In this document: positions 16,138 to 61,746 of the stretch, in pieces
Layout of the letters: every line of letters begins with the position of its first letter
Position numbering within the stretch: position 1 is the stretch's first letter
NCBI RefSeq assembly: GCF_012295525.1
Contig: NZ_CP051167.1
Span: 5,749,299-5,813,298, forward strand
Reading direction: 5' to 3'
DNA from: Oxynema aestuarii AP17
GTDB lineage: Bacteria; Cyanobacteriota; Cyanobacteriia; Cyanobacteriales; Laspinemataceae
DNA: 64,000 nt
Position numbers and translations under genes: made by a program
The notes under the pieces: generated by a model
What the model saw: the letters and a program-made list of their open reading frames with translations, nothing else
Told to the model about the DNA's origin: nothing
Database searches by the model: none

Positions 16138-16196
16138 TTAAATTAGATTTTAGATTTTAGATTTTAAATTAGATTTTAGATTTTAGATTTTAGATT
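16138..16196. repeat. Heptanucleotide tandem repeat array (TAGATTT/TAGATTG units), STRR-like
   Basis: attagattttagattttagattttaaattagattttagattttagattttagattg, visible directly in the sequence. Confidence 0.8.
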
Positions 16197-16462: not shown

Positions 16463-17074
16463 TTATCGGACTCGGGCGCGATCGCGTTCCGTCACTTCGA
16501 CGGCGCTGGTTTCTCCCGTTCCCAACCCGTTCGCCTCGTTGATACTGGCAGGATCTAAATGAGCGTCGGTCAGATTTGCCGCTTCCCAACTGACTCCGCT
16601 TAAATTTGCACCGATTAAATTGGCTCCGCGTAAATTGGTATAACTTAAGTTCCCATCGCTCAAGTTGGCCATCCCTAAATTGGCTTGGGATAAATTCGCC
16701 CCGTTTAAGTCCGAACGACTTAAATTAATAAAACTGAGATTGGCATTCCCTAACTGCGCTTGTCTGAGATTGACTCCAGATAAGTTCGCTTCAAATAAAT
16801 TGGCATTAATTAAGATAGCCTGTTCTAAATTTGTTTCTGATAAATCTGCATTACACAGGTTCGCCGCTTCTAAATTTGCTCCCGTTAAATTCGCACCCTT
16901 TAAGTTCGCTTCGCGCAAATCCGCCCCGACTAAATCCGCATCACTTAAATCGCATCCCTCGCATTGTTTCGTTTGTAACAATTGGGTGACGTGTTCTGGG
17001 TTGGCGGCGTGACCGGGACTCGACCAAGCGATCGCTACGGGTAAAACTAAAGAGAGTAAAAGACTGAGTTTCAC
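16463..17074 (-). CDS. Secreted pentapeptide-repeat protein
   Basis: 203-aa ORF with an N-terminal signal peptide (MKLSLLLSLVLPVAIAWSSPGHA) followed by continuous A(N/D)L(S/T/R)xA(N/D)L pentapeptide repeats. Confidence 0.85.
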   Translation of the reverse strand: MKLSLLLSLVLPVAIAWSSPGHAANPEHVTQLLQTKQCEGCDLSDADLVGADLREANLKGANLTGANLEAANLCNADLSETNLEQAILINANLFEANLSGVNLRQAQLGNANLSFINLSRSDLNGANLSQANLGMANLSDGNLSYTNLRGANLIGANLSGVSWEAANLTDAHLDPASINEANGLGTGETSAVEVTERDRARVR

Positions 17075-17282
17075 GGTTTCCCCCCCGTAATTTATAATCT
17101 TGTCGCTTAGTGTTCCCCCGCTCCGGCGATCGCTAACAGGTTCTCTCTAAAAAAATCCCCGTTTTCGATCGACCGCAGACCTGCGATAATTTTTCTTTTA
17201 AAACAAATAAAAACATCGCGATTTGACCTGCATTTTCGATCGCTCCGGTGGCGATCGCTCCGACGCCCTCACTCCCTCTTAT

Positions 17283-17864
17283 TTATGGCGTAAACCCAAT
17301 AGCATTGGTAAAGTTACCGCCTCTCGAACCGAGGACGTTCGCCCCGATTAAATTCGCTGCATTAAAATTGGCATTGAGTAAATTCGAGCCTCTTAAGTTT
17401 GCCGCATTCAAATTTGCCCGAAATAAATCGGCATTGCGCAAATCTACTTCTACTAAATGGGCTCCACTCAAGTTTGCAGCTTTTAACAGTGCGTCTTGTA
17501 AATTAGCTCCGTCTAAGGTCGCTTCGACTAAATTGGCAACGGATAAATCGGCTTCTGTTAGATTGGCGGCGCGTAAATTTGCCCCTCTGAGGTTGGCCCC
17601 GGTTAAGTTCGCACCGGATAAATTAGCGCCGGATAAATCGGCGCCGTTGAGGTTGGCCCCGCGCAGATCGACCCCCACCAAATCGCGACCGGACAGATCG
17701 GCGCCGTTGAGGTTGAAACCCGCACCGTTCCGGGTTTCTAGCAGCTCTTGCACCGGGGCATTGACTTGGGCGAGGGTGGGAAGGGAGCATCCCAGGACGA
17801 GGGCGAGGGCGCTGGCAGTCAGCAATGTGGGACGGTTCATGGAAATCGTGCCTCCTAGCTGCAT
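17283..17864 (-). CDS. Secreted pentapeptide-repeat protein (paralog of the preceding gene)
   Basis: 193-aa ORF with a signal peptide (LLTASALALVLGCSLPTLA) followed by ANLxGANL pentapeptide repeats throughout. Confidence 0.85.
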   Translation of the reverse strand: MQLGGTISMNRPTLLTASALALVLGCSLPTLAQVNAPVQELLETRNGAGFNLNGADLSGRDLVGVDLRGANLNGADLSGANLSGANLTGANLRGANLRAANLTEADLSVANLVEATLDGANLQDALLKAANLSGAHLVEVDLRNADLFRANLNAANLRGSNLLNANFNAANLIGANVLGSRGGNFTNAIGFTP

Positions 17865-22940: not shown

Positions 22941-23837
22941 ATGGCCAACAATTGGTGGGAAATTCAAGTGCTGTGCGATCCGGCTCTGGAAGATTCGATC
23001 TTCTGGCGCTTGGAAAATTTCGGCTGTCGCGGGATGGCCACGGAACTAAAGGGTCATTCCTGTTTGATTTCCACCTATCTGCCCCAGGAACGCGCTCAAA
23101 TGCTGGATTTGTCCGCGCTTTCCCTACTGTTGCGCCAAGATGCTCTCGCGATCGGATTGCCCACTCCCGCGATGCAGTGGAATTTAATCGAGGAGGAAGA
23201 TTGGGCGATCAGTTGGAAAAAACACTGGCACCCGCAAGAGATCGGCGATCGCTTTTTGATTTATCCGGCGTGGCTTCCCCTTCCGGAACAGTGCGATCGC
23301 CTGCTGCTGCGCTTGGACCCCGGCGCCGCTTTCGGTACGGGCGCCCACGCCACCACTCAACTCTGTCTCGAAGCGTTAGAAATGCGTTTGGGCTTCGATC
23401 CGAGCGATTCTGGGGTACAAGTGGCCGATATCGGTTGCGGTTCGGGGATTTTATCCATTGGGGCGCTGTTGTTGGGCGCCGGAAAAGCCTACTCGGTGGA
23501 TATCGACCCCCTCGCCGTTCGGGCCGCCCGTCGGTGTCGCGAACTCAATAAAATTGCCGAGTCGAAAATGTTAGTTAAACTCGGCAGTGTCGAACGGGTC
23601 AAACAACTGATTGAAGAACCTGTCGATGGCATTATTTGCAATATCCTCGCCGAAACTATTTTAGATTTAATTCCCGAGATGGATCATATTTGCAAGCCGA
23701 GTACCTGGGGAATTATTAGTGGGGTGCTGCTCGAACAAGCGAAACCTGTCGCCGATACCCTCGAACAGCATGGCTGGGTCGTCGCGACCCTTTGGCGGCG
23801 TCAAGATTGGTGCTGTTTTAATATTCGGCGGTCTTGA
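22941..23837 (+). CDS. prmA: Ribosomal protein L11 methyltransferase
   Basis: Start at the internal ATG ([11 protein letters not shown]...). It has a SAM-binding motif ([18 protein letters not shown]) and the PrmA-typical [14 protein letters not shown] motif. Confidence 0.85.
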
Positions 23838-23892
23838 GATTTTAGATTGTAGATTTTAGATTGTAGATTCTAAATTTTAAATTTTAGATGTA
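23837..23892. repeat. Heptanucleotide tandem repeat array (TAGATTT/TAGATTG), STRR-like
   Basis: gattttagattgtagattttagattgtagattctaaattttaaattttagatg, between convergent prmA and trx. Confidence 0.8.
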
Positions 23893-25608: not shown

Positions 25609-25653
25609 CCAATCTACAATCTACAATCTACAATCTACAATCTAAAATCTAAA
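25609..25653. repeat. Heptanucleotide tandem repeat array (ATCTACA/ATCTAAA; reverse complement of the TAGATTT family)
   Basis: caatctacaatctacaatctacaatctacaatctaaaatctaaaatc, between convergent fabG and the pse-like cluster. Confidence 0.8.
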
Positions 25654-25654
25654 A

Positions 25655-26707
25655 TCAAATCACGTCCCAACTCACCGGAGTTCCCTTTTTTAAATCTTTT
25701 TTCACCACTTTCCCCAGCAGGATTGGATAATATTTGGGCGACAAGCCCAACCCGGGACGAATCGCCCGCAAATTCTCCGGCGTAAAACAGTCCCCCGCCT
25801 TCATATCTCGCGCCACATACAAAGAACGACGAAAGCCCATTGAAGCCCTTTCTGCGTCACTCGGGCCGTATTGAATTCGCCCCAATGATTGCCAAGCTTT
25901 TTGAGTTTCGATCGCCAATTGTTGCATCTCCTGTGGTTCCATCGAAAAAGCAGAATCGACACCTCCATCGGCTCGTCTGAGGGTAAAATGTTTTTCGATA
26001 AATGTGGCTCCAAACGCAACACTCGCCACCGCGACGCCAACACCCATCGTGTGATCGGAAAGACCGACTTCGACATCAAAAAGTTGGCGTAAATGGGGAA
26101 GCGTTCGCAAATTACTATTCTCTGGTGTCGCCGGATAGGTACTCGTACATTTTAATAAAATGAGGGATTGACATCCCGCTTCTTTCGCCGTTCTCACGGT
26201 TTCATCTAATTCGGCGATCGTTGCCATTCCTGTAGAAATAATTAACGGTTTTCCCGTACTGGCAACTTTACGAATTAAGGGCAAATCGGTATTTTCAAAA
26301 GAAGCAATTTTATAACAAGGAACGTCTAAAGATTCGAGAAAATCAACGGCAGTTGCATCGAAAGGTGTACTGAATCCGAGGATTCCCAATTGTTGGCAGC
26401 GATCGAAAATTGGCTGGTGCCATTCCCAGGGAGTATGTGCTTTTTCGTAAAGTTGGTAAAGAGAATAACCATGCCAAAGACTATCGGTATTGTTAATAAA
26501 AAACTCTCTTTCGGCGAGGTCGAGGGTCATCGTCTCCGCCGTATAAGTTTGTAGTTTAACTGCGGAAACTCCAGCAGCAGCCGCCGCTTCGACAATCTCT
26601 AAGGCACGATCTAAAGATTGATTGTGATTGCCGGACATTTCGGCCACAATAAAGGGCGGACGATCGATTCCAATCGAATAGTTACCAATTTTAATACTGT
26701 TCATCAT
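25655..26707 (-). CDS. pseI: N-acetylneuraminate/pseudaminic-acid synthase family (NeuB/PseI-type nonulosonic acid synthase)
   Basis: 350-aa ORF. The N-terminus FIVAEMSGNHNQSLDRALEIVEAAAAAGVSAVKLQTY is the NeuB TIM-barrel. A C-terminal SAF/antifreeze-like domain is present (RSLYVARDMKAGDCFTPENLRAIRPG). Confidence 0.85.
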   Translation of the reverse strand: MMNSIKIGNYSIGIDRPPFIVAEMSGNHNQSLDRALEIVEAAAAAGVSAVKLQTYTAETMTLDLAEREFFINNTDSLWHGYSLYQLYEKAHTPWEWHQPIFDRCQQLGILGFSTPFDATAVDFLESLDVPCYKIASFENTDLPLIRKVASTGKPLIISTGMATIAELDETVRTAKEAGCQSLILLKCTSTYPATPENSNLRTLPHLRQLFDVEVGLSDHTMGVGVAVASVAFGATFIEKHFTLRRADGGVDSAFSMEPQEMQQLAIETQKAWQSLGRIQYGPSDAERASMGFRRSLYVARDMKAGDCFTPENLRAIRPGLGLSPKYYPILLGKVVKKDLKKGTPVSWDVI

Positions 26708-50956: not shown

Positions 50957-51601
50957 ATGGCCATTTATCTCGATTCGGCGATCGTTGCCGACGCCAAAGC
51001 TGCCCAAAAACTCGGCTGGGTCAAAGGAATCACCACCAACCCGACCTTACTGGCGCAAAGCGACGATCCGCCAGAAATGACCTTGAAAAACTTACTCCCG
51101 TTCGCCGACGGTCCGCTTTACTATCAATTGCTAGCTGGCGACGTTCCTGGAATGGTCGCCGAAGGACGCCGAGCTTACGAGATTATCGGCGATCGCACCG
51201 TCCTCAAAATTCCCGCCACGCCGACCGGATTTGAAGCCGTCGCCATTCTTTCAAAAGAGATGACCTGTTCGGTGACCGGGATTTACGGACCGATCCAAGC
51301 GGCGATCGCCCGGGAAGCCGGAGCCAAAATCGCGATCGCCTACGTCAACCGCGCCACGAGGCTTTTGGGCGACGGGATCGCCCTCGTGCGCGAGATGGCC
51401 GCGATCCTCGAAGACAGTGACGTCGAAATCTTGGCCGCCAGTATCAAGTCTCCCGAAGAAGCTGCCGCCGCCTTACAAGCAGGCGCCGACCACTTGACCC
51501 TACCGTTGCCGATGTTAGCGGCGATCGCCCAGCACGAGTTTTCCGATAAAACCGTCGAAGACTTCGCCAAAACGGGCCGGGGATTACCCCTTAAAACGTA
51601 A
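50957..51601 (+). CDS. Transaldolase-family protein (short TalC/fructose-6-phosphate aldolase type)
   Basis: 214-aa ORF. MAIYLDSAIVADAKAA...GITTNPTLL... matches the N-terminus of short transaldolases. The catalytic Lys context is VLKIPAT. Confidence 0.85.
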   Translation: MAIYLDSAIVADAKAAQKLGWVKGITTNPTLLAQSDDPPEMTLKNLLPFADGPLYYQLLAGDVPGMVAEGRRAYEIIGDRTVLKIPATPTGFEAVAILSKEMTCSVTGIYGPIQAAIAREAGAKIAIAYVNRATRLLGDGIALVREMAAILEDSDVEILAASIKSPEEAAAALQAGADHLTLPLPMLAAIAQHEFSDKTVEDFAKTGRGLPLKT

Positions 51602-52631
51602 AAATTTGCTTGACCCGGGTCGCTTCATTCTCCTGTTGCGCCCGGGCGAGTTCCCGGTCTAAGGCGGCTAAATTTTCCTCGATCGCCCCGACCAGACGGG
51701 CGATCGCCGACCCATTGGTCGGCAGACGGCGCCCGAGTTCGACATCGGTGCGATAGTGGGTTTCGAGGGCGTTGCGCCCCTGTCGAATCGCCGTTTGATA
51801 CTCGTTCGACTCGGCGATCGCCCGATCCAACTCGCCGCGCACCCGATCGTACTCCCGGCGTTGGGAGTCGAGTTCGTCTAAGAGCTGTTGTAAGCTGTCG
51901 CCGAGGCGATCGCGCTGTCGGGCGTAGTCCGCGATCGCCGCTTTCGCTGTTTCTTCAGTTCGCAATTGCAGGCGATCGCGCCGTCCGCGCAATAATTCGA
52001 TTTCTTCACCGAGTTGGGACTGCTGACGCCGTAACTGCTCGATTTGACCGTCGAGATCCGCTTTTTCGCGCTCCAGTTCGCTCAATTGCGCCTGTTGCGG
52101 TGCCAAGACGGCGCGATCGCGGGCGATCGACGCGCGCAAGCCATCGAGATCGGTGCGTTCCAACTCCCCACGCAGTCGGTCGAATTGCTCTGCTTCGTGT
52201 TGCAGTTGCTCTAATTCGGCGATCGCGTCGCGCATGTCGCCATCGATCGCCGAAAATTCGCCCGTTTTTGTCAGCAATTCGCTGTGTTGCGCGCGCAACT
52301 GTTGTAATTGGCGGGCGCGATCGCCGATTTTGGTTTGGAGGGCGTCTAATAACGAGAGGCGATCGAGGGTCGCGCCCGTGCGATCGAGCCATTGCAGTTG
52401 GGCGTCTAAGGCGCGAGTGAGGGCGATCGCCCACGCTTCCAAGGTTTCCGGTTCGGTCGCGTCCAACTGTTGCAAAACCTCGGGTGGATAGAGTTGTGCC
52501 CAAACATCGAGCAGAATTTCGAGCCATTGCAACGGGAGGGCGATCGTCTCGAAGGTCAACAAGGGGCGTTCGTCCTCAGAGGCGAGGTGTTGGAGACGGG
52601 CGATCGATTGGGCGAGGAGATCGAGGGACAT
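51591..52631 (-). CDS. Hypothetical coiled-coil protein (Arg/Glu/Leu/Gln-rich), downstream partner of the Hsp70-like gene
   Basis: The internal ATG start (MSLDLLAQS...) gives a ~346-aa product. It is almost entirely predicted helical and coiled coil, with no enzymatic motifs. Confidence 0.5.
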   Translation of the reverse strand: MSLDLLAQSIARLQHLASEDERPLLTFETIALPLQWLEILLDVWAQLYPPEVLQQLDATEPETLEAWAIALTRALDAQLQWLDRTGATLDRLSLLDALQTKIGDRARQLQQLRAQHSELLTKTGEFSAIDGDMRDAIAELEQLQHEAEQFDRLRGELERTDLDGLRASIARDRAVLAPQQAQLSELEREKADLDGQIEQLRRQQSQLGEEIELLRGRRDRLQLRTEETAKAAIADYARQRDRLGDSLQQLLDELDSQRREYDRVRGELDRAIAESNEYQTAIRQGRNALETHYRTDVELGRRLPTNGSAIARLVGAIEENLAALDRELARAQQENEATRVKQIFTF

Positions 52632-52711
52632 GGGTAAGGGGGAGTAAAGAGCCAATGTGAAGTACCCGACGCTCATTGCTACGCAATAGAGCGCGGGCTT
52701 CTCTCTTCACC

Positions 52712-52733
52712 CTAAAATCTAAAATCTAAAATT
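52712..52733. repeat. Short heptanucleotide repeat (CTAAAAT x3)
   Basis: cctaaaatctaaaatctaaaat, between the Hsp70-like and coiled-coil genes. Confidence 0.7.
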
Positions 52734-52737
52734 TCCA

Positions 52738-54336
52738 TTATTCAATTAACACGAAACCGGGAAACATTTTCGCTAAAACATTGCCTAACTCATATTCCAC
52801 TCGTTTTTCCCCGCGAACTTCTTCAATGGTTAAATAAGCAATTTGAGAGCGATCCACGCGCATTCCCACCCGCCATTTATCCTCGGGAGAATAACTCGGT
52901 AACTTCACCATCTCCGGTAAGGATTCTTCGACCAAGACGCCTTTTCCTTGGGGGTCTACCCAGAGGGTGAGGGTCAAGGGTGCATCTTGTTGAAAGGTCA
53001 CTAAAGGGGGAATATCGGCAAATTGGGGTTGAGATAACTCTTCCAAGCGGGTGCCACCTTTGATAATTTCGATCGCGCGGCGTTGGCGTTCGGCGTTGGC
53101 GTCGATGGTATCGACCACGATCCCGAGATTGTGCAGATATTTTTCGCTGGGTTGGACGCGATCGTTGGCGATCAAACAGGCGCCGTAGGAGATCGCATAA
53201 GCGCTGTGGGTGAGGTTAAAGGTTGCGTCGAGACGGGGATCGTCTGTAGCGAATTGTAAGGCTGAGGCGATCGCCCGTCGGACGAGGAAAAACTGAGAAA
53301 AACCGCCGACGAGGAAGACGCGATCGATCGTCTGTTGTCGTTCGGCGATCCAGGTTCGGACTCGTTCGATGACTGCGGTAATTCCGGCGGCGATCGGTGC
53401 GAATGCCTCGCACACTTGTGCGAAATTGAGGGAATACCCCCCGGCAAACACGTAAATCTGGCGATCGCCGTAAATTTCCGGCTCGCGCACGGCATTTGTG
53501 AGGTATCGCGTCACGCGGGCGTGAGAGCCGATTTTGACCGTTTCAAATTCCCGTAACAGGCGCAGGAATTCCGGGTCGTTTTCGTCGAGAGTCGAGTCGT
53601 GTTTTGCCTTGTAAGCTGCTTGCACGCAACGGCGATCGAAAGCTACCCCGGCGGATTCGAGACCGCGATCGCCCTGTCCGTCAAAATAGAGGACATCGAC
53701 TTTTTGTTCCCCGTAAATTCGGCATAAACTCACATCAAACGTACCGCCACCCATATCGCACACGAGGAGATTTCCCGAAAAACTCTCATCTCCCGCATCT
53801 TTTGCCCGTCGTTGCATGTCCCAAGTATAGTAAGCGGCGGCGGCGACGGGTTCGCTGACCAATTGAATGAGGGGCAAATCGAGAGCGGCGATCGCCTGTT
53901 TTAACAATTCTCGTCCGCGATTGTAAAGATCGCGCTGCCAAATTTCGGGAACCGAGACCACCAGACCGGAGATTTCCCCTTGTTGTTTGCAAAAACTGTA
54001 AGGATTTTCCTCAGAAACGAGCAGTTCGCGCAAGTAATCCGTAGTGACGCTGGCGGGGGTGCGATCGTGGCGAATGTACTCCGGCAATCGATCGGCGGGA
54101 ATGGGCAAGCGCATTTTAAAATTGCCGTAAGTTTCCACATCCCCGTGATTGGCGGCGAGAGTCCGCGCGGCGGTGCCAATTTCGACAAATTCCTCGTCGT
54201 AGCCGATAAACGAGGGAATATAGCGGCGACCGTCAGGACCGCCATATTGAAAGGCTTCTACTTCGGCGGAGGAGGTGAAATAAGAAATAATCGAGTTCGT
54301 CGTCCCGAAATCGAGGCCGATTTTGTACCCGGACAT
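52738..54336 (-). CDS. Hsp70-family actin-like ATPase, apparently lacking the canonical substrate-binding domain
   Basis: 532-aa ORF. The NBD motifs are IGLDFGTTNSIISY, LLVCDMGGGTFDVSL and RVFLVGGFSQFFLV. The C-terminal ~150 aa do not resemble the DnaK SBD. Confidence 0.8.
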   Translation of the reverse strand: MSGYKIGLDFGTTNSIISYFTSSAEVEAFQYGGPDGRRYIPSFIGYDEEFVEIGTAARTLAANHGDVETYGNFKMRLPIPADRLPEYIRHDRTPASVTTDYLRELLVSEENPYSFCKQQGEISGLVVSVPEIWQRDLYNRGRELLKQAIAALDLPLIQLVSEPVAAAAYYTWDMQRRAKDAGDESFSGNLLVCDMGGGTFDVSLCRIYGEQKVDVLYFDGQGDRGLESAGVAFDRRCVQAAYKAKHDSTLDENDPEFLRLLREFETVKIGSHARVTRYLTNAVREPEIYGDRQIYVFAGGYSLNFAQVCEAFAPIAAGITAVIERVRTWIAERQQTIDRVFLVGGFSQFFLVRRAIASALQFATDDPRLDATFNLTHSAYAISYGACLIANDRVQPSEKYLHNLGIVVDTIDANAERQRRAIEIIKGGTRLEELSQPQFADIPPLVTFQQDAPLTLTLWVDPQGKGVLVEESLPEMVKLPSYSPEDKWRVGMRVDRSQIAYLTIEEVRGEKRVEYELGNVLAKMFPGFVLIE

Positions 54337-54423: not shown

Positions 54424-54459
54424 GGAGTTTGGAGTTTAGAGTTTAGAGTTTAGATTTAA
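54424..54459. repeat. Heptanucleotide tandem repeat (GAGTTTA/TAGATTT-like)
   Basis: gagtttggagtttagagtttagagtttagatttaaag, upstream of the Hsp70-like gene. Confidence 0.7.
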
Positions 54460-54706
54460 AGTAAAAAATTGGTTTTTAAAGTATTTATTTGCTAAAATTT
54501 AGCGCAATTGCTCAGAAAATGGGGTTTAAATCGATAAAGATGTCTGTAGTTCCTGCATTCTAGAGGAATGGGGAAGCGGCGGGCAAAATAACCGCGCCAC
54601 AGTTGACGATACCGATGGAGATGGATTTTTGCTTCTTGTCTTCGGCTCCTTCCCCCCAACGGCTCGTGACAAGGGACAATTAAAGAGAACATCTAGCAAA
54701 GCGATC

Positions 54707-55673: not shown

Positions 55674-55989
55674 CGTTTGACTCCTTGGGTTTAGACAGAT
55701 CGATCGCGATTGTAAAGGATAAGAGCCCTCGGGGCGATCGCGCAGAATCTCTCGAATGTAGGGATTACCGAGGATCTGCGTAAACTCGGATGGGTATTTT
55801 TGGGGAGGTTCGTCCGGCGCACTCAAGCTAAAGTGGGAGAGAGTGCAGATCGCATCAATGCTCGTCGGTAAGATCACCCGTAAGGGCGATCGCCCGATTT
55901 TGACGGCTCTACCCATCGGTACGTTGCTGAGGTGTTTGACGCCGAGACAAGCGCTGCTTGCATCCCCTGTTTCTCCATCCTTAAAACCC

Positions 55990-61746
<5,757 letters not shown>

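Follow-up and report, generated by a model that had tools for sequence, protein, structure and literature searches.

A predicted lidless Hsp70-family ATPase and its conserved coiled-coil partner in Oxynema aestuarii

Two genes lying head-to-tail on the minus strand were analyzed in a 64,000-nucleotide stretch of the cyanobacterium Oxynema aestuarii AP17 (contig NZ_CP051167.1, positions 5,749,299 to 5,813,298; hereafter the window, in whose own numbering all coordinates are given). The first encodes a 532-amino-acid (aa) Hsp70-like ATPase (52738..54336), which is 100% identical to the "Hsp70 family protein" of O. aestuarii, and the second encodes a 346-aa coiled-coil protein (51591..52631), the two being spaced by 61–106 bp. 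Judged by its residues and its modelled fold, the ATPase appears to be a catalytically intact, rare and lidless Hsp70, and its gene was found to be linked to that of the coiled-coil protein in most of the related loci collected. On balance, we consider it probable, with moderate confidence, that the pair represents a specialised ATPase of the Hsp70 family together with an elongated coiled-coil adaptor cognate to it, and that the two form the core of a patchily distributed, multi-gene conflict-type module.

Nucleotide-binding domain of the ATPase

The Pfam HSP70 model covered only the nucleotide-binding domain (NBD) of the 532-aa protein (E = 3e-15), which extends over residues 1 to approximately 392 (53161..54336, minus strand). 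The protein was aligned to NBD structures of DnaK, and in an alignment of 110 relatives (37–72% identical), residues D9, T12, T13, K74, E162, D194, G196–198, T199 and D201 were invariant. The equivalents of the DnaK catalytic set D8, K70, E171, D194, T199 and D201 were all present, as is characteristic of an actin-fold NBD, and the claim of a preliminary description of this DNA that the protein holds all the Hsp70 nucleotide-binding motifs was thereby substantiated. Conservation among the relatives ran along the full length of the alignment, the C-terminal 140 residues included.

The same description had called the protein a non-canonical Hsp70, and the family models bore this out. The canonical DnaK models TIGR02350 and PRK00290 gave 47.8 bits against a cut-off of 822.55 and 51.2 bits against 648, respectively, with the NBD alone being matched, and the YegD-type model PRK11678 gave 14.4 bits against 331. 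The best NCBIfam match, HscA (TIGR01991; E = 5e-17), likewise failed to reach its cut-off of 708.55 with 61.5 bits. A full-length match to an ordinary DnaK or HscA was thus not found, the scores of the three model types (14–61 bits) being far below their cut-offs (331–823 bits). In structure comparison, Hsp70 structures stood approximately 10 Z units above any actin-like protein, and with the BeeR and ParM models the ATPase remained far under threshold; the nearest fold and family model is Hsp70, not an actin-like polymerising ATPase such as MreB, ParM or BeeR. In PADLOC-DB v2.0.0, the ATPase matched only PDC-M61B (E = 0.012).

C-terminal domain

The preliminary description regarded the protein as an NBD only, with a C-terminus unrelated to the substrate-binding domain (SBD) of DnaK. 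This assessment held at the level of sequence, in that alignment of the C-terminal domain to DnaK SBD-beta with hhalign returned a probability of 0.3%, i.e., no signal, but it did not hold at the level of structure. In a model of residues 378–532 alone (pLDDT 79), Hsp70 substrate-binding domains were the clear structural matches; they made up the best 50 Foldseek matches apart from the recurring ciliary-microtubule chain 6u42_5F, which also scored 8.4. ATP-state BiP and Sse1 were aligned over 437–438 residues, approximately 100 more than the NBD-only structures, and we read this extent of alignment as a prediction that the C-terminal domain docks where SBD-beta docks. The beta-sandwich (approximately residues 393–532; 52738..53160, minus strand) directly follows the NBD, which is the arrangement of the Hsp70 superfamily.

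A lid was not found. The chain of the model stops 8 residues beyond one short helix (518–524) after the sandwich, and the family members, all approximately 510–560 aa long, do not have the SBD-alpha lid of canonical DnaK. Because hhalign gave no signal, the homology to the SBD is founded on fold, position and docking only, and on these grounds the C-terminal domain is modelled as a divergent, lidless SBD-beta. Among 1.84 billion representatives, a profile of this domain retrieved 115 clusters (50% identity), of which 47 reached E <= 1e-10; the proteins were nearly all of 510–560 aa, and none was a DnaK of canonical length.

Within the SBD-like domain, residues 487–493 (52858-52878) form a near-invariant W/Y-R/K-V-G-M-R segment. 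This segment was considered as a glycyl-radical site for the NrdG-like enzyme described below and was rejected, as it is one residue short of R-V-x-G-Y and lies in a predicted beta strand.

The coiled-coil partner

As described previously from the sequence alone, the partner proved to be a 346-aa, Arg/Glu/Leu/Gln-rich coiled-coil protein with no enzymatic motif. L, A, R, E and Q are abundant in its sequence, and a hydrophobic 3.5-residue periodicity was detected over residues ~100–350 (z = 5–8). Pfam, NCBIfam and PADLOC revealed no enzymatic domain, yielding only weak, sub-threshold coiled-coil matches to SMC, Rad50 and JetC; the PADLOC matches (LmuB/JetC) were coiled-coil noise, and neither DnaJ, GrpE nor a J-domain was recognisable. 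The open reading frame (ORF) also offers an upstream ATG at 52676, which would extend the protein to 361 aa; we favour the 346-aa start, which agrees better with the alignment of homologues and with the gene call of the isolate.

Conserved segments at both ends suggest that the partner is more than a featureless rod. A predicted helical N-terminal domain of approximately 100 aa (52332..52631, minus strand), delimited by an alignment of 26 partners and by alignment A5, carries the motifs FETIxLP..LV and PEVLxQL..D.(E/D)TL(E/D)AWAIAL, which are common to the 26 homologues. The remainder (51591..52331, minus strand) comprises the predicted rod, recognised by its heptad periodicity and the sub-threshold matches mentioned above, and a conserved C-terminal segment with the motifs HY..D..LG..LP and L..LD.EL. 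Sequence profiles gave no meaningful counterpart in the PDB for either conserved part, the N-terminal domain matching only designed helical proteins and chance entries. A homologue search with the partner itself gave only 2 matches, coiled-coil words swamping the candidates, and the family was recovered from gene neighbourhoods by means of a local hidden Markov model (HMM).

Conservation of the gene pair

To gather family members, metagenome contigs were scanned with the C-terminal-domain alignment; a scan with the full-length alignment had picked generic Hsp70 motifs (SEPVAAA, GGGTFDV) and returned ordinary DnaK loci with one true member (Tychonema). In all, 34 loci were collected, 28 of them on metagenome contigs and the others from Tychonema, Sodalinema, Dethiobacter, Planktothricoides and further sources; they span cyanobacteria, Firmicutes and unassigned metagenome contigs; a Chloroflexaceae member is also present in the homologue list. 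Among the 33 loci with sufficient flanks, a partner gene recognised by the family HMM adjoined the Hsp70-like gene in 28 (25 downstream on the same strand, 3 divergent), although some loci are near-duplicates and these counts overstate their independence. The pair, whose co-occurrence elsewhere had been proposed as a check, is accordingly a conserved module and no accident of the Oxynema genome. Of the 25 same-strand loci, 10 have only −4 to +8 nt between stop and start, so that the two codons often overlap, and this spacing suggests translational coupling of the two genes.

The partner was absent without a remnant in five loci, namely those of Planktothricoides and Arthrospira, the contigs L092 and L094, both from a single uncultured Oscillatoriaceae lineage, and one short contig in which a zinc-ribbon gene comes after the Hsp70-like gene. 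In Arthrospira, the Hsp70-like gene stands alone at its locus, and in Limnospira, two gene pairs of the wider cluster described below (AAA+ with the second coiled coil, and partner with radical SAM) are found at another locus; the components can thus be split across a genome. Overall, the distribution is patchy with clean losses, and the family is enriched in filamentous cyanobacteria yet often lost from filamentous species.

Compared with a 95–98% identical metagenome copy, the ATPase gene had an omega of 0.11 (non-synonymous to synonymous changes, 8 to 22) and the partner gene one of 0.34 (19 to 17), the counts being small; the neighbouring transaldolase-family gene had an omega of 0.20. These values indicate purifying selection on both genes of the pair.

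Separately, a conserved 94-aa Cys-rich ORF, absent from the window, was observed right after the Hsp70-like gene in three loci of close relatives (L087 850-1134; L092 10481-10765; L094 about 2030-2311). In L087 the partner gene follows this ORF, whereas in L092 and L094 the ORF takes the place of the partner gene.

A recurrent six-family cluster

The preliminary description dealt with the pair alone and missed that elsewhere it is the core of a larger assembly. Clustering of the neighbouring genes revealed four further families that recur beside the ATPase and its partner across phyla. The first is an NrdG-like radical-SAM family of approximately 200 aa with a Fer4_12 match and a CxxxCxxC motif (NrdG model, 98 bits against a cut-off of 126), whose gene starts −4 to +2 nt from the partner stop in 11 of 16 measured loci. 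The second is an AAA+ family of approximately 850 aa, a double ATPase of the SpoVK/CbbX/EccA type in cyanobacteria, with a family-specific N-terminal domain for which no PDB match was obtained. The third is a second coiled-coil family of approximately 500 aa with a conserved C-terminal domain, which had no match in Pfam, NCBIfam, PDB or PADLOC. The fourth comprises one to four zinc-ribbon proteins per cluster, in which a zinc ribbon at the N-terminus and a coiled coil are combined with a C-terminal part that varies between FGE-sulfatase, WD40 and transmembrane types.

All six families are present in Dethiobacter, where the AAA+ protein has AAA_2 domains of the Clp type in fusion with a trypsin-like protease and the cluster, of eight genes, lies immediately beside a type III-B CRISPR-Cas locus. 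In Calothrix PCC 6303, the complete cluster resides on a mobilizable 56-kb plasmid, on which the C-terminal half of the partner is fused to a STAND(NB-ARC)-TPR protein. In further fusions, the modules joined with the family Hsp70 or with the SBD-like domain were CHAT, CHAT-STAND-TPR-zinc ribbon, NERD, Ser/Thr kinase-GAF-HATPase and LuxR helix-turn-helix, and the cluster neighbours included E1-E2-like, AbiEi, type II methyltransferase, CARF and CHAT genes. No DnaJ, GrpE or IscU-like gene was found among the neighbours of the 34 loci. In the clade of the closest relatives, the radical-SAM gene is gone from the locus, and a transaldolase-family gene stands in its place.

None of PADLOC, NCBIfam, Pfam and PHROGs contains a model specific to the ATPase family, to its partner or to the second coiled-coil protein; in PADLOC, the AAA+ proteins drew only generic IetA/TRIP13 AAA matches and the radical-SAM protein only a weak pVip match.

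Several additional genes were noted beside members of the cluster. In L114 (455-5911), ThiF/E1-E2-like genes with PADLOC E1-E2 matches and a 90-aa ORF come before a distantly related pair of Hsp70-like and partner genes, and a ubiquitin-like conjugation module may be linked to the system there. Three unannotated families (~330, 340 and 450 aa), which may be accessory components, lie beside the cluster in some of the cyanobacterial loci (L093 4796-8826; L095 3658-7517; L098 97-2500; L120 22400-23860); the ~450-aa family had no match in Pfam, NCBIfam or PADLOC. In the Sodalinema cluster, a Dam-type (MethyltransfD12) methyltransferase gene is situated between the AAA+ and zinc-ribbon genes (L116 2092-3024; also L089 4193-5119).

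Comparison with known systems

Ssz1 consists of an NBD and a short SBD-beta without a functional lid, and forms a stable heterodimer with a partner having long helices; it is eukaryotic, ribosome-bound and essentially non-hydrolysing. The core of the ribosome-associated complex (RAC) containing the Ssz1 SBD (6sr6) was among the Foldseek matches of the C-terminal domain described here. The likeness to Ssz1-Zuo1 lies in fold and architecture, with no specific sequence relationship (~21% identity, typical for any Hsp70), and unlike that pair, the present one has an ATPase with all catalytic residues invariant and a partner without a J-domain.

In the DnaK-GrpE-ClpB bi-chaperone disaggregase, an Hsp70 ATPase and a double-ring AAA+ protein are coupled by coiled-coil elements; the cluster likewise brings together an Hsp70 ATPase, coiled coils and a AAA+ protein, which in Dethiobacter has Clp-type AAA_2 domains. 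The differences are that DnaJ and GrpE are missing, that the coiled coils are separate proteins and not a ClpB M-domain, that the Hsp70 is lidless and scores 48–51 bits with the DnaK models (cut-offs 648–823), that the cyanobacterial AAA+ is of the SpoVK/CbbX/EccA type, and that radical-SAM and variable zinc-ribbon proteins are added. HscA, which with HscB forms an Fe-S cluster chaperone, is a specialised Hsp70 serving a single pathway and the best-scoring NCBIfam model for the ATPase, and a gene for an Fe-S enzyme is linked in most relatives; in contrast, the present protein has no lid, no HscB J-protein and no isc genes nearby, and it remains far from the HscA cut-off (61.5 against 708.55 bits).

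Atypical Hsp70s are already known from predicted conflict systems, in the DO-GTPase/GAP1-N2 theme (PMC7159879) and as CnuD (PMC11090510), and the cores that define those systems are absent here. CnuD/CnuCD of type III CoCoNuTs has an Hsp70-like NBD/SBD in a coiled-coil-rich predicted defence system with SpoVK-type AAA+ extensions; CoCoNuTs are McrBC-derived, with a McrB-like GTPase, DUF2357, HEPN and HEAT repeats, and their Walker-type motifs are reported to be degenerate (PMC11090510). CnuD is set apart by this description from the present ATPase, whose catalytic residues are intact, and no McrB-like GTPase (CnuB), McrC/DUF2357 or HEPN was found within ±10 kb of the Oxynema pair or among the recurrent families of the 34 loci.

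The NTP-dependent conflict systems of multicellular prokaryotes (Kaur et al. 2020, PMC7159879) combine an NTPase "switch" and constant adaptors with variable sensor/effector domains, among them FGE-sulfatase ("FGS"), WD40, CHAT, STAND and trypsin domains, and are enriched in filamentous cyanobacteria. The present cluster resembles them in its constant NTPase/adaptor core surrounded by variable shared domains (FGE-sulfatase, WD40, transmembrane, trypsin, CHAT, STAND-TPR and NERD). Their GAP1-N2 DO-GTPase theme includes HSP70 and GrpE, with one HSP70 copy lacking the peptide-binding domain (PMC7159879). The MoxR-vWA-VMAP/iSTAND, DO-GTPase-GAP1 and EACC1-caspase cores were found neither among the recurrent families nor among the top neighbour Pfam families, and the combination of an Hsp70-like protein, a coiled-coil partner, an NrdG-like radical-SAM protein and a SpoVK-type AAA+ is not described in PMC7159879.

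Other features of the Oxynema locus

A divergent DUF2854 gene borders one end of the pair. At the other end, a transaldolase/FSA-family gene (50957-51601, plus strand) is convergent with the partner gene, and the 3' ends of the two overlap by 11 bp (51591-51601), leaving no space for a terminator between them. A weak promoter-like site was located 5' of the pair (54557..54586, minus strand) by a consensus scan, which returned 2 sites against 2.0 expected by chance and so provides no evidence of function.

The two genes are separated, as noted earlier, by a short heptamer repeat, i.e., three copies of CTAAAAT (TTTAGAT on the coding strand) at 52712..52732. Arrays had been said to flank the pair on both sides, which proved incorrect: TRF identified this intergenic array and a second one 5' of the Hsp70-like gene (5.6 × GAGTTTA, 54425..54462), and none downstream of the pair. 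Other heptamer arrays in the window are TTAGATT × 8 (16143-16196), AGATTTT × 7.6 (23837-23889) and CAATCTA × 6.7 (25610-25656). Those at 16143 and 23837 are longer arrays of the same TTTAGAT-type unit as the intergenic one, and that at 25610 is a different heptamer. Since the same unit recurs at 16143 and 23837, the repeats are generic and have nothing specific to the pair. Short tandem intergenic repeats of the STRR type are common in cyanobacteria, and the heptamer arrays are genome-wide repeats of this type. Several period-15 tandem arrays, such as CCGGATAAATTAGCA, were also observed clustered within approximately 1 kb (16596-17646), with 2–3 copies each.

The HIP1 octamer GCGATCGC occurs 174 times in the 64 kb, compared with approximately one occurrence by chance, which identifies the window as cyanobacterial; 13 of the copies lie inside the two genes. 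The locus is adjoined by a hybrid histidine kinase, a 1967-aa ORF (55843-61746) that overlaps at its 5' end with a minus-strand ORF of 233 aa. Many PAS domains are listed in the precomputed Pfam annotation of the identical gene of Oxynema, and inspection of the translation by eye suggested that a kinase core is also present, along with two receiver domains and a terminus resembling Hpt.

Discussion

Whether the pair is a cytoskeletal/scaffold or a defence-type module had been left undecided by the preliminary description. Of these two options, the latter fits the evidence best, by virtue of the fusions, the plasmid copy and the CRISPR adjacency, and the former is hard to reconcile with the Hsp70 fold and the nature of the cluster partners. 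The conflict-type reading is based on the CHAT, STAND-TPR, NERD and trypsin fusions, the copy on a mobilizable plasmid and the copy beside a type III-B CRISPR-Cas locus. The variable FGE-sulfatase, WD40 and transmembrane zinc-ribbon ends and the patchy distribution with clean losses are further hallmarks of conflict systems.

By analogy with Ssz1-Zuo1 and with the contact between DnaK and the ClpB M-domain, we infer that the ATPase binds its partner. In the proposed mechanism, the partner would dimerise into a rod, and its conserved N- or C-terminal segment would engage the Hsp70-like protein. This segment might occupy the lidless SBD-beta in the manner of a "client", which is the part that Zuo1 plays for Ssz1, or might instead bind the NBD like a ClpB M-domain or a nucleotide-exchange factor. 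ATP binding and hydrolysis would toggle the docking of the SBD and would thus gate how the complex is assembled or remodelled. Where the system is complete, the ATP cycle would be coupled to the AAA+ ATPase and the variable sensor/effector proteins, for immunity or another conflict function. In Oxynema, the remaining components may lie at other loci, as in the split arrangement of Arthrospira and Limnospira, or may have been lost.

Several observations weigh against such a role. The genes around the pair in the window (DUF2854, CRR7, transaldolase-family, Uma2 and the giant histidine kinase) are of housekeeping or signalling type and the locus is no defence island, and the cluster neighbours elsewhere are mostly housekeeping genes as well. 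None of the six families matches a system model of PADLOC-DB v2.0.0. This reading also does not account for the NrdG-like radical-SAM protein, for which no glycyl-radical substrate is evident. The 64-kb window encodes none of the other four families, and no Oxynema orthologue was present among the best 120 of 785 radical-SAM homologues. With no further component found in these two places, the Oxynema pair may work differently. The family was also not found on the viral contigs of IMG/VR, a point that we counted as neutral.

Three other explanations were weighed, all of which are less well supported. The pair could be a dedicated housekeeping chaperone, in which an HscA-like Hsp70 and a coiled-coil co-chaperone serve one client, for example the Fe-S cluster of the radical-SAM protein, with no conflict role. 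HscA is indeed the best NCBIfam match, the gene for the 4Fe-4S radical-SAM protein is, of all neighbours, the one most tightly linked to that of the partner, the neighbourhood in the window is of housekeeping character, and the synteny with the transaldolase-family gene is common to related Oscillatoriales. We nevertheless regard this as unlikely, given an HscA score of 61.5 bits against a cut-off of 708, the lack of a J-domain, IscU-like or GrpE gene at any locus, and the retention of the Oxynema pair without a radical-SAM gene at its locus. It would also leave unexplained the AAA+-trypsin protein, the CHAT, STAND and NERD fusions, the variable zinc-ribbon proteins, the plasmid copy and the CRISPR adjacency.

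Alternatively, the Oxynema pair could be an orphaned remnant whose radical-SAM, AAA+ and sensor genes were lost, and which is decaying or has been co-opted for an unrelated minor role. The window holds no other component, the closest clade is without the radical-SAM gene, and Planktothricoides, L092 and L094 have in addition lost the partner with no remnant; Oxynema does not appear among the best 120 radical-SAM homologues, and omega is higher for the partner (0.34) than for the ATPase. A remnant of this kind is rather improbable, considering that both ORFs are intact, that they evolve under purifying selection at rates comparable with that of the transaldolase-family gene (omega 0.20), that the catalytic residues and family motifs are kept, and that, as the splits in Arthrospira and Limnospira demonstrate, absence at a locus is not absence from a genome. 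A cytoskeletal role, in which the actin-fold ATPase would polymerise or regulate a coiled-coil filament as described for the cyanobacterial coiled-coil-rich proteins (CCRPs), would suit the long coiled coil of the partner and the enrichment in filamentous cyanobacteria, but is very improbable in view of the ~10 Z units that separate Hsp70 structures from any actin-like protein, the SBD-beta that follows the NBD in Hsp70 style, the failure of the BeeR and ParM models, the non-cytoskeletal nature of the radical-SAM, AAA+, sensor and CHAT/STAND components, and the frequent loss of the gene from filamentous species.

Hsp70s are among the best-studied proteins, while the bacterial "orphan" Hsp70s are mostly unexplained. 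The present analysis defines a rare family that is catalytically intact by its residues, predicted to be lidless, accompanied by an obligate-looking coiled-coil partner and embedded in a recurrent six-family cluster. No description of the family, the partner or the cluster was found in the domain libraries or in the literature searched, the coverage of the latter being incomplete. Returning to the conflict-type module, we put forward, as a tentative and distinctly more speculative proposal, that the lidless Hsp70 and its partner might be the engine of an immune system new to the literature in multicellular bacteria. The Hsp70 ATP cycle, instead of a STAND, MoxR or GTPase switch, would set the threshold of activation, the radical-SAM activase would install a protein radical or make a small-molecule signal, and the AAA+ unfoldase/protease would execute on the targets of the hypervariable zinc-ribbon sensors. 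If the cluster is an immunity system, an Hsp70-driven switch would join the known NTPase switches of prokaryotic defence, and a biochemical question would be raised, namely what an NrdG-like activase acts on where no glycyl-radical enzyme is present. The Oxynema pair alone would constitute a minimal two-protein system for the regulation of a lidless Hsp70.

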